From Escherichia phage SECphi17, in the sequence record LT960607: DNA of 5,538 nt; one strand, given 5' to 3'. Shown here piece after piece: positions 1,457 to 5,538 of the stretch (position 1 is its first letter; each line of letters starts with the position of its first letter). Both the position numbers and the translations under genes were made by a program. The notes beneath the pieces were generated by a model. It was not told the DNA's origin. It ran no database searches and was given only the letters and a program-made list of their open reading frames with translations.

Positions 1457-1634
1457 GACTGATGCTCTTGATGAAGAAAAATGGCTCAATATGCTGGGCA
1501 CTCTTCTTAAGGACTGGTTCCGTTACGAAGAACATTTCGTACATGGCAAACAATCTTTAGTTAACATATTAATCGAGCGGGGGTTAATATCCCCCACACA
1601 AACAACCCGTAACAATAAAGGAAATACCAAATGA
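1374..1634 (+). CDS. C: Protein C (86 aa), DNA maturation / ssDNA synthesis switch.
   Basis: ATG at 1374-1376 overlaps the A stop TGA at 1375-1377 (ATGA). Protein [23 protein letters not shown]...[27 protein letters not shown] matches recalled phiX174 C. The track's GTG at 1356 is an upstream in-frame extension I reject. Confidence 0.9.
1561..1590 (+). promoter_or_regulatory. Candidate sigma70 promoter pD inside gene C: -35 TTAACA (1561-1566), -10 TAATAT (1585-1590), 18-nt spacer.
   Basis: Consensus-like hexamers at the position homologous to recalled phiX174 pD (GTTGACATTTTAAAAGAGCGTGGATTACTAT), upstream of D. Confidence 0.4.
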
Positions 1635-2086
1635 ACTCCAACGAATCTGCTGTAGCCTTTCAAACTGCAATTGCTTCTATCAAAATGATTCAAGCCTCAT
1701 CCGTCCTCGACCTCACCGAGGATGACTTCGAATTCTTAACTGGTGACCGTGTCTGGATTGCTACCGACCGTTCTCGCGCTCGCCGTGCTGTGGAGGCCTG
1801 CGTTTATGGCACACTGGACTTTGTCGGGTATCCTCGCTTTCCTGCTCCTGTTGAGTTTATTTCTGCTGTTATCGCTTACTACGTTCATCCGGTCAACATC
1901 CAGACCGCTTGCCTCATCATGGAAGGAGCCGAGTTTACTGAAAACATCGTCAATGGCGTTGAATCCCCAGTTAAGGCTTCCGAACTCTTCGCTTTCGTTC
2001 TCCGTGTCCGCGCTGGCTGTAAAGACGTCCTCGAAGGTGCCGAAGACAACATCCGCGCTAAACTCCGTGCACAAGGAATCATGTAA
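1631..2086 (+). CDS. D: External scaffolding protein D (151 aa).
   Basis: ATG at 1631-1633 overlaps the C stop (ATGA at 1631-1634). Very high similarity to recalled phiX174 D (VWIATDRSRARR.VEACVYGTLDFVGYPRFPAPVEF, VIAYYVHPVNIQTACLIMEGAEFTENI.NGVE). Confidence 0.95.
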   Translation: MNSNESAVAFQTAIASIKMIQASSVLDLTEDDFEFLTGDRVWIATDRSRARRAVEACVYGTLDFVGYPRFPAPVEFISAVIAYYVHPVNIQTACLIMEGAEFTENIVNGVESPVKASELFAFVLRVRAGCKDVLEGAEDNIRAKLRAQGIM

Positions 2087-2093
2087 TGGCTAA
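1806..2093 (+). CDS. E: Lysis protein E homolog (95 aa), encoded in an alternate frame inside D and running 7 nt past the D stop into J. Atypical transmembrane segment (see findings).
   Basis: ATG at 1806-1808 with GGAGG at 1792-1796. Product MAHWTLSGILAFLLLLSLFLLLSLTTFIRSTSRPLASSWK aligns without gaps to recalled phiX174 E (MVRWTLWDTLAFLLLLSLLLPSLLIMFIPSTFKRPVSSWK). Stop TAA at 2091-2093. Confidence 0.75.
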   Translation: MAHWTLSGILAFLLLLSLFLLLSLTTFIRSTSRPLASSWKEPSLLKTSSMALNPQLRLPNSSLSFSVSALAVKTSSKVPKTTSALNSVHKESCNG

Positions 2094-2172
2094 AGGCAAA
2101 TCATATCGTCGCGGCTCCGCTGGCAACAAAAAAGGCTCTCGCCTCTGGTACGTTGGCGGCTCACAATTCTAA
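2086..2172 (+). CDS. J: Small basic DNA-binding (packaging) protein J, 28 aa.
   Basis: ATG at 2086-2088 overlaps the D stop (TAATG). Hand translation MAKGKSYRRGSAGNKKGSRLWYVGGSQF, stop TAA at 2170-2172. Lys/Arg-rich with the conserved RLWYVGG motif of microvirus J proteins. Confidence 0.8.
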   Translation: MAKGKSYRRGSAGNKKGSRLWYVGGSQF

Positions 2173-2209: not shown

Positions 2210-3496
2210 ATGTCTAATGTTCAAACTTCCGCTTCTCGCGATGCAATTGATTTATCACATCTGGTCTTCAACACTGGCGCTATTGGTCGTCTTAAAGTCG
2301 CGTCATGGACTCCTGTTATTGCTGGTGATTCTTTCCAGCTTGATGCTGTTGGTGCTTTACGCTTATCCCCTCTGCGTCGTGGCCTGGCTATTGACTCAAC
2401 TGTTGACTACTTCACTTTTTACATTCCACACCGTCATATCTATGGCAATGCATGGATTGAATTTATGAAAACTGGTGTCGCCGCCGCTTCTCTTAACCCT
2501 GTAACCACTGCGGCTTATGTTGACGGTGCTTCTTATCTCGGTGTTATTCCTTCTGCTGACAACAAGGTTCCTAAATTCCTGCACCAAGGCTATCTCAATA
2601 TTTATAATAACTACTTCAAAGCCCCTTGGATGGCTGACCGTACTGAGGCAAACCCATCCAACTTAAATGATGACGACCGTCGTCACGGCTTCCGTTGCTG
2701 TCATTTAAAAAACATCTGGTCTGCGCCTCTTCCTCCTCAAACGGAAATTACCCGCGCTATGACTACTGGCGCTACCTCCATTGATATTATGGGTCTTCAA
2801 GCTGCTTACGCCCAACTTCACACTGACCAAGAACGTGACTACTTCATGCAGCGTTACCGTGACGTTATCTCTTCTTTTGGTGGCAAAACTCACTATGACG
2901 CTGATAACCGTCCTCTTCTGCTTATGCGCTCTAACTTCTGGGCATCTGGCTATGACATTGACGGTACTGACCAAACTTCTTTGGGTCAATTCTCTGGTCG
3001 CGTCCAGCAAACTTTCCGTCACTCTGTTCCTCGCTTCTTCGTGCCTGAACATGGCGTTGTTATGACTCTTCAACTTGTACGCTTCCCGCCTACCTGTACC
3101 GAGGAAACTCACTACCTCGTTGGCAAAGGCGCACTAAGCTATACTGACCTCGCGGGTGACCCTACTCTTTACGGTAACTTACCGCCTCGAGAAATCGAAA
3201 TGAAAAATCTCTTCCGTGGCGCTGCTGGCTCTACTGAAAAAATCAAAATTGCCGAAGGGCAATGGTATCGCTATCATCCTTCTTACGTTGATGGCCAATA
3301 TCACAACCTTAAAGGCTTCCCGTTCATCCTAAACGGCCCAACCGGCAACATGGAAAATCGTGTACTGATTGACCATAAAAAATATGACGAATGCTTCCAG
3401 TCACTTCAATTAACCCATTGGAATGCTCAGGCTAAATACAATGTCACTGTATATCGACACATCCCAACCACTCGTGATAGCATCATGACTTCTTAA
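2210..3496 (+). CDS. F: Major capsid protein F (428 aa).
   Basis: ATG at 2210 with AAGGA at 2199-2203. Long stretches match recalled phiX174 F (LRLSPLRRGLAIDSTVD, HQGYLNIYNNYFKAPWM, GFRCCHLKNIW.APLPP, IDIMGLQAAYA.LHTDQERDYFMQRY, QTSLGQFSGRVQQT, PTTRDSIMTS). Confidence 0.97.
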   Translation: MSNVQTSASRDAIDLSHLVFNTGAIGRLKVASWTPVIAGDSFQLDAVGALRLSPLRRGLAIDSTVDYFTFYIPHRHIYGNAWIEFMKTGVAAASLNPVTTAAYVDGASYLGVIPSADNKVPKFLHQGYLNIYNNYFKAPWMADRTEANPSNLNDDDRRHGFRCCHLKNIWSAPLPPQTEITRAMTTGATSIDIMGLQAAYAQLHTDQERDYFMQRYRDVISSFGGKTHYDADNRPLLLMRSNFWASGYDIDGTDQTSLGQFSGRVQQTFRHSVPRFFVPEHGVVMTLQLVRFPPTCTEETHYLVGKGALSYTDLAGDPTLYGNLPPREIEMKNLFRGAAGSTEKIKIAEGQWYRYHPSYVDGQYHNLKGFPFILNGPTGNMENRVLIDHKKYDECFQSLQLTHWNAQAKYNVTVYRHIPTTRDSIMTS

Positions 3497-3507
3497 AGCC
3501 TATAACG

Positions 3508-3545
3508 TGACAGGGGGAAAAATTTTAATTTTTCGCCCCCTGTCA
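3508..3545 (+). other. F-G intergenic hairpin: 10-bp perfect stem (TGACAGGGGG / CCCCCTGTCA) enclosing an AT-rich loop AAAAATTTTAATTTTTCG. Candidate complementary-strand priming site and/or terminator TF.
   Basis: Inverted repeat 3508-3517 / 3536-3545 read directly from the sequence. The loop is nearly identical to the recalled phiX174 F-G loop (TAAAAATTTTAATTTTTG). Confidence 0.5.
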
Positions 3546-3595
3546 GGTTGAACAAGCGCAAGCGCGTTAGCTGCCTAACTATAAGGACTACTCAA

Positions 3596-5225: not shown

Positions 5226-5538
5226 ATGTCTGTAGAACTCATCAAACCACTTGTAGAAGCTGCTGGCATGTCCACGCTTACACAATCTCCAAACCTCCGC
5301 ATCTGGAAACAAGTAAACACTCGCGTAAAATTACTTGAAGAAATCCTTACTTATTACACAAACGGAATCCGTCGCTGCCCTGACACTCAGGACTTCTACA
5401 TGAATCCAAATTCACAACTTGCAACCACTATTGCCTATCGTGCTCATCAAAAGGGACACAATCCAAAATTCAAACAATACCCTGATACATTCACCCTGGA
5501 CGATATCATTTCCGGTAAACCAATCCCTGAAACTGCCC
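5226..5538 (+). CDS. A: Replication initiator protein A, 5' portion (runs to window end; continues in frame at 1..1377 of the circular genome).
   Basis: ATG at 5226 is the first start after an in-frame TAA at 5208-5210. GGAGG at 5214-5218 sits 7 nt upstream. The frame stays open to the window end, and 5484-5538 is identical to 1-55, joining frame 1 of the A body. Confidence 0.85.
   Translation, partial: MSVELIKPLVEAAGMSTLTQSPNLRIWKQVNTRVKLLEEILTYYTNGIRRCPDTQDFYMNPNSQLATTIAYRAHQKGHNPKFKQYPDTFTLDDIISGKPIPETA
5484..5538. repeat. 55-nt terminal direct repeat identical to bases 1-55: overlap from linearising a circular genome, not a biological repeat.
   Basis: Exact identity of 5484-5538 with 1-55, read directly. 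Gene A reads through the junction in frame. Confidence 0.9.

Follow-up and report, generated by a model that had tools for sequence, protein, structure and literature searches.

In textbook accounts of the lysis protein E, Pro21 is the essential and conserved residue on which the picture of a kinked helix blocking MraY is based, and it guides the design of E-derived peptides and peptidomimetics. The E protein of phiX174 (91 aa; PDB 8G02, chain B) is an inhibitor of MraY that requires SlyD, and it occupies the same place within gene D as the E described here. PDB entries 8G01 and 8G02 are the complexes of ID21 E and phiX174 E, respectively, with MraY and SlyD; published descriptions have E bending at its conserved proline and lying in a hydrophobic groove beside MraY helix 9. 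Substitutions of Pro21 abolish lysis by phiX174 E, as Witte 1997 is cited in the study of ID52 E, and ID52 E itself, a G4-like protein, no longer lyses cells when it carries P21A. A second strand of work concerns the Epos alleles of phiX174 E, in which pos6 is R3H, pos5 is L19F, and pos4B carries both; the nucleotide change behind L19F also gives A79S in D. The Epos effect in phiX174 has been attributed to faster synthesis of E, not to altered binding of SlyD.

Here we analyze the E gene of Escherichia phage SECphi17 (LT960607), in a window of 5,538 nt that comprises the whole stretch of DNA studied. Many studies of anti-phage defence have made use of SECphi17. An earlier note, made from the letters of the window, had pointed to an E with Leu and Arg in place of Pro21 and Pro29 and with His3 and Phe19, and had proposed that this protein is either non-functional or a variant that inhibits MraY without the proline kink and may be SlyD independent. 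We argue below that positions 1806-2093 are probably the lysis gene E of a distinct Lilleput/MG1/PJNS002-type lineage in which the cytoplasmic half of the E helix has been remodelled.

Results

The window corresponds to a complete circular Bullavirinae (phiX174-like) genome of 5,483 nt with the gene order A/A*/B/K/C/D(E)/J/F/G/H; an exact 55-nt repeat at its two ends (1-55 and 5484-5538) stems from assembler overlap. The nearest relatives in GenBank are the Escherichia phages MG1, lillemer, Lilleput, Lilledu, Lilleto, and Lilleen, with 93-94% nucleotide identity to the window, and Salmonella phage PJNS002 comes next after those six at 83%. Across 5,207 nt, the window shows 100% identity to a 5,513-nt contig that Logan assembled from run ERR2231584. 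For the Lilleput group against SECphi17, identities of 92.6-94.5% have been published (Olsen et al. 2020). E. coli K-12 MG1655 was the isolation host of the five Danish phages Lilleput, Lilledu, Lilleto, Lilleen, and lillemer, and members of the lineage have been obtained as plaques on E. coli MG1655 and on Salmonella delta-rfaJ.

A tree of the capsid protein F unites the Lilleput group with PJNS002 in a single deep branch. The F protein of the window (2210-3496) is only 66-74% identical to any F of the phiX, G4, or alpha3 type, phiX being the closest, whereas its D protein (1631-2086) is 84-89% identical to G4-type D, and the D/E module is closest to G4. This contrast between F and D suggests that the lineage is deep and of mosaic origin or that its modules have evolved at very unequal rates. 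GC-rich inverted repeats, found by eye, lie in the J-F intergenic region (2174-2196, ctctggggcttcggccccaa) and in the F-G intergenic region (3508-3546, gtgacaggggg...ccccctgtcag); by their appearance, both look like hairpins or terminators.

Lysis gene E is overprinted in the +1 frame of D, continues for 7 nt after the D stop codon and so overlaps the beginning of J (Table 1), and encodes a 95-aa protein beginning MAHWTLSGILAFLLLLSLFLLLSLTTFIRSTSRPLASSWKEP. It starts 175 nt into D versus 178 nt in phiX174, whose D has one extra N-terminal codon, so that the two E start codons align exactly; the alignment of the product with phiX174 E (reference NC_001422) is gapless. Searches with phmmer matched the protein to PDB 8g01_B (ID21 E) at 1.8e-10 and to 8g02_B (phiX174 E) at 1.4e-8, the profile PHROG 1472 ("lysis") matched at 1.5e-20 over positions 1-91 of 91, and gpE of ID8 matched at 7.8e-15 with 58% identity. 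The homology of the window E to known E proteins is thus far beyond chance. The Pfam family PF04517, which represents the C-terminal domain of E, reached 21.1 bits (E = 2.9e-4) and stayed under its 25-bit gathering cutoff; the C-terminal part has diverged too far to be annotated automatically by Pfam. At the N terminus, a single Leu-rich transmembrane helix is present; save at the variable positions 7-9, residues 4-18 agree with WTL...LAFLLLLSL, the consensus drawn from every E protein examined. Upstream of the ATG the frame stays open for 21 codons to a GTG at 1743, which yields an ORF of 116 aa (1743-2093); N-terminally extended E predictions similar to this one exist in databases, the extension being hypothetical.

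Table 1. Positions of the D/E/J genes, the E ribosome-binding signal, and the E codons compared with phiX174
Feature	Position	Strand	Basis or remark
Gene D, external scaffolding protein, 151 aa, host frame of E	1631..2086	+	Pfam PF02925, 1.6e-81
Shine-Dalgarno GGAGG	1792..1796	+	Read directly; ends 9 nt before the ATG of E
Lysis gene E, 95 codons + stop	1806..2093	+	Translation, phmmer, PHROG 1472, start relative to D
E codon 3, CAC = His (phiX Arg; CGC>CAC)	1812..1814	+	D Thr62, synonymous
E transmembrane core, codons 10-28, LAFLLLLSLFLLLSLTTFI, proline-free	1833..1889	+	D wobble sites near-invariant in the lineage
E codon 19, TTT = Phe (phiX Leu; TTG>TTT)	1860..1862	+	Same nucleotide gives D A79S, non-synonymous
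E codon 21, CTG = Leu (phiX CCG, Pro)	1866..1868	+	D Ala80 GCC>GCT, synonymous
E codons 22-26, TTA TCG CTT ACT ACG = LSLTT (phiX SLLIM)	1869..1883	+	S22L, L23S, I25T, M26T
E codon 29, CGG = Arg (phiX CCG, Pro)	1890..1892	+	D Pro88 CCC>CCG, synonymous
Gene J, 28-aa DNA-binding protein	2086..2172	+	Translation MAKGKSYRRGSAGNKKGSRLWYVGGSQF; start overlaps the D stop and the E end

Codon-by-codon comparison with NC_001422 bears out the reading of the earlier note at all four sites, with Leu at 1866-1868, Arg at 1890-1892, His3, and Phe19; the phiX174 E sequence that it used is correct, and P21L and P29R are, as it stated, synonymous in D (Ala80 and Pro88). Its list of changes was nevertheless too short, since P21L does not stand in isolation: S22L, L23S, I25T, and M26T adjoin it, each a T/C change at a wobble position of D that leaves the D protein unaltered. 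No proline occurs in residues 1-33 of the window E, the first being P34. Relative to E of phiX174, ID2, or the alpha3 type, the core differs at five D wobble sites (codons 21, 22, 23, 25, and 26), and relative to G4 E, which already has Thr26 and Phe19, it differs at four. That five changed sites fall inside six codons of a 19-codon core is significant for clustering (p = 0.006). Residues 4-20, 24, 27, and 28, by comparison, show zero lineage-specific change, residues 7-9 and Phe19 being of the G4 type and unlike phiX174. Positions 1812-1826 read His-Trp-Thr-Leu-Ser, the same as in G4 and ID21 E; as judged from these alignments, the motif at residues 3-7 varies among natural E proteins.

The overlap with D leaves E few choices in this segment. 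With the D protein held fixed, residue 21 is limited to Leu, Pro, Gln, or Arg, which makes Leu the only hydrophobic alternative to Pro. Residues 22 and 23 can be Leu or Ser only, the remaining D-synonymous options at codon 22, and at codon 23 with the Ile codon ATA, being stop codons; residue 25 can be Ile or Thr only, and residue 26 Met or Thr only. In the lineage, every one of these near-binary switches is in its other position. Proline could have been reached D-synonymously at positions 10, 13, 14, 15, 20, and 24, and none of these became Pro, so the proline has not simply shifted to a neighbouring position. Furthermore, P29R puts a charge right after I28, so that the hydrophobic run measures ~20 residues (before Arg29) versus ~24 (before Lys33) in phiX174. 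Arg29 is found in the Lilleput-type genomes, which form the E. coli branch, while PJNS002 retains Pro29.

Alignment with other Bullavirinae E proteins, which the earlier note had proposed as a check, identified a natural Leu21 in 13 distinct genomes and Pro21 in all others examined. The 13 comprise the window, MG1, lillemer, Lilleput, Lilledu, Lilleto, Lilleen, PJNS002, and five metagenome or run contigs (ERZ1749850 = OBLN01002562.1, SRR27294582, ERZ27250420, SRR22260385, and SRR21601252); they share the Leu21 helix LAFLLLLSLFLLLSLTTFI and are 81-100% identical over the D/E region. Within this set, residues W4-I28 are invariant save for S17N in lillemer and G8A in PJNS002, and all 13 keep the ATG, a GAGG or GGAGG Shine-Dalgarno sequence (the GAGG core being common to all), and an open frame of 91-97 codons. 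The E of Lilleen has 97 aa and a C-terminal end reading ...SCKYYG; that of PJNS002 has 91 aa, a phiX-like ...NYVPKE ending, a strongly divergent C-terminal half, and an identical helix.

Every other E examined reads LPSLLI[MT]FIP, with Pro21 encoded by CCG. This comparison set consisted of 18 IMG/VR genomes (G4, ID2/ID18, ID52, ID21, and alpha3/St-1 types), ID2, phiX174, Shigella phage vB_1081, and protein-database hits. Two scans of IMG/VR, one with D peptides and one with a degenerate DNA pattern for the E helix, retrieved 17-18 Bullavirinae genomes, all with Pro21 and none with Leu21, and a scan of the genome collection for non-Pro21 variants found none. Over E codons 1-40, seven of 562 Bullavirinae records in a phage collection are at least 95% identical to the window, and the rest are at most 91.7% identical. 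Protein sets of 5.8 billion and 1.84 billion sequences yielded no Leu21-type E, all matches having the Pro21 motif; many of these matches are phiX spike-in chimeras. Leu21 is a trait of a deep Bullavirinae lineage, not a defect of one genome. Under midpoint rooting, with no outgroup that carries E, Leu21 would be the derived state.

The arrangement of the two frames permits a clean test of selection on E. With E in the +1 frame, the wobble position of D is the second codon position of E, and nearly every D-synonymous change therefore alters E. Across the 13 genomes, only 1 of the 19 D wobble sites under E codons 10-28 is variable, compared with 74/129 (~57%) elsewhere (Fisher p = 1.1e-5). The variable fraction is 34/58 in the part of D upstream of E, 8/12 under E codons 29-40, and 30/50 under E codons 41-90. 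The window and PJNS002 compared alone give 0/19 D wobble differences in the core and 38/96 elsewhere. In the Pro21-bearing groups, the core likewise has 1/19 variable D wobble sites. These data reveal purifying selection on the new Leu21 helix, which is constrained as tightly as the Pro21 helix. We relied on wobble conservation since the open frame by itself is weak evidence: in 6-25% of simulations in which D was reshuffled synonymously, the E frame still ran for 91 codons or more without a stop. A further observation is that 19 of 200 possible D-synonymous changes would create a stop in E and that none of them occurs in the 13 genomes.

Discussion

Based on the wobble conservation, the retention of ATG, Shine-Dalgarno sequence, and open frame in every genome of the lineage, the plaques that its members form, and the lack, to our knowledge, of any other lysis gene in Bullavirinae, we reject the first of the two options in the earlier note, namely that this E is non-functional; the gene is almost certainly functional in the Leu21 lineage. 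The second option, a working E without the proline, stands, and that it works through MraY is our probable reading: we consider it likely that the E of the Leu21 lineage is functional and still an inhibitor of MraY. The loss of lysis on substitution of Pro21 in phiX174 and ID52 E speaks against this and makes a working Leu21 unexpected.

We propose that remodelling was confined to the cytoplasmic half of the helix, through P21L, S22L, L23S, I25T, and M26T, to which the E. coli branch adds P29R. In its periplasmic half (W4-L20), the helix hardly differs from that of all other E proteins, and we therefore argue for docking in the same groove and for inhibition of MraY. Leu21 E would insert with its N terminus outside the cell, and the conserved half of the helix would dock in the MraY groove by TM9 and TM5, as do phiX174 and ID21 E; synthesis of lipid I would then be blocked, and growing cells would lyse. 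Side chains of Ser and Thr can hydrogen-bond to the backbone, bending or loosening membrane helices. The Ser23/Thr25/Thr26 cluster may thus replace the Pro21 bend, giving the helix flexibility or a bend of its own. Alternatively, the bend may no longer be needed, a shorter straight helix (~20 vs ~24 hydrophobic residues) being sufficient.

A more radical interpretation is that the lineage has arrived at a second structural solution on the E scaffold, that is, a proline-free helix with a different geometry on MraY or with another target in envelope synthesis, reached by five epistatic neighbouring substitutions hidden at D-synonymous sites; we regard this as possible but rather unlikely. We also think it unlikely that the binding mode on MraY has changed substantially or the host target has switched, so that E would be a new protein antibiotic on an old scaffold. 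Five clustered substitutions, one of which removes the proline that forms the kink, at sites that do not vary elsewhere in the phiX, G4, and alpha3 types (apart from Thr26 in G4) would be in keeping with such a change, as would the divergence of the post-helix and C-terminal regions, which leaves the Pfam match under cutoff. Against it, residues 4-20 carry no lineage-specific change, and G4 E is identical there, which points to the same docking site; the periplasmic half of the E helix faces the MraY resistance sites; and a switch of target would be expected to alter more than six residues.

That E is instead a decaying relic, killed by the loss of Pro21 in phages that lyse their hosts by other means, is very improbable. 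The lysis-negative Pro21 substitutions in phiX174 E, as far as they are cited in the ID52 study, and P21A in ID52 E would be in line with it, as would the indecisive open frame (6-25% of reshuffles) and the want of an E annotation in the genomes of the lineage. A relic would drift, however, and the D-synonymous sites under the helix are frozen (1/19 vs 74/129); moreover, 19/200 D-synonymous changes give a stop, yet ATG, Shine-Dalgarno sequence, and open frame are all retained in 13/13 genomes, and the phages form plaques in a subfamily for which we know of no alternative lysis gene.

Least probable of all is a nucleic-acid constraint (RNA structure, translational control, or DNA packaging) as the reason for the frozen wobble sites under codons 10-28. 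In its favour, Epos mutations in this region act through the rate of E synthesis and not through protein function, and weak pairing is predicted between the start codon of E and the region of codon 21, P21L turning a G-C into a G-U pair. Against it, the predicted fold is no better than that of shuffled sequence (z = +0.21), the transmembrane region shows no compensatory change in the alignment fold, and the block of frozen sites falls on the E helix, which is reportedly sufficient for lysis. Moreover, the existence of two frozen sequences, one of the Pro21 and one of the Leu21 type, is easier to reconcile with two protein solutions than with a single RNA element. RNA structure was accordingly set aside as a cause of the conservation (z = +0.21, no covariation). 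In the alignment fold, 1806-1809 (AUGG) pairs with 1865-1868; the pairing is not significant, and that between start codon and codon 21 is probably due to chance.

The suggestion in the earlier note that His3 and Phe19 may make this E independent of SlyD finds no support in the residues themselves, even though it gave the Epos alleles correctly. Both residues are ordinary G4-type states: His3 is the wild-type state in G4, ID2, and ID21 E, and ID21 E, with His3, was solved in complex with SlyD. The wild-type E of phage G4 (G4 2154-2444) has His3 and Phe19 together and is thus a natural counterpart of the Epos double genotype. Since wild-type G4 E has both residues, ID21 E is SlyD-bound, and Epos acts by synthesis rate, SlyD independence is not readable from the residues; an Epos phenotype tied to faster synthesis in the context of the phiX174 mRNA is not to be inferred from residue identity. 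On these comparisons, His3 and Phe19 do not predict SlyD independence, and the matter is not decided by residues alone.

E is unannotated in all seven GenBank relatives, as B, K, J, and A* usually are too, and automated gene calling passed over it in the Logan and ENA contigs as well. Leu21 E is absent from the protein databases searched because E is missing from these annotations and gene calls, and full-text literature searches found no mention of a natural E that lacks Pro21. By homology and synteny, Leu21 E nonetheless clearly belongs to the E family, but it lacks Pro21, one of the features reputed to define that family. The statement that Pro21 is necessary, for which the earlier note relied on published reports, has its basis in P21A of ID52 E and in Witte 1997 as cited in the same study. 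If, as we infer, the Leu21 proteins are lytic, the rule that Pro21 is essential has exceptions among natural E proteins.

The occurrence in nature of an E that is under selection and has no proline in its helix would mean that the requirement for Pro21 depends on sequence context, and the Leu21 lineage would offer ready-made compensating substitutions for dissecting the role of the kink. The case is unusually accessible, since some members of the lineage are phage isolates that can be grown on E. coli K-12. Evolution in an overprinted gene is seen here in a clean form, all five clustered changes in E being synonymous in D, and the D protein is nearly invariant within the Leu21 lineage.

The described E proteins place these changes in relief. 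Window E and phiX174 E are identical at L10-L18, L20, L24, F27, and I28; within the first 29 residues, phiX174 has R3, W7, D8, T9, L19, P21, S22, L23, I25, M26, and P29, where the window has H3, S7, G8, I9, F19, L21, L22, S23, T25, T26, and R29. Among proteins of solved structure, the best match is ID21 E (76 aa; PDB 8G01, chain B, the YES complex), whose N terminus, MGHWTLSGILAFLLLLSL, equals that of the window save at residue 2; it continues as LPSLLIMFIP, with both Pro21 and Pro29, and is 19 residues shorter at the C terminus than the window E. G4 E (96 aa) is among the closest annotated relatives, with ~55% identity to the window E and the same +1 overprint in D. Its residues 1-20 equal those of the window save residue 2, including His3, Ser7, Gly8, Ile9, and Phe19, and it shares Thr26, but it has Pro21-Ser22-Leu23, Ile25, and Pro29 where the window has Leu21-Leu22-Ser23, Thr25, and Arg29, and its C-terminal half is ~50% different. 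The window thus has both Epos residues together with A79S in D; the Epos alleles, however, are selected suppressors, whereas His3 and Phe19 of the window are inherited lineage states in common with G4. ID52 E, a G4-like protein studied for bacterial ghost production, has Arg3 and Leu19, and its lysis persists in a slyD knockout, so that SlyD dependence varies among natural E proteins. In that same protein P21A abolishes lysis, whereas the lineage of the window has a natural Leu21.
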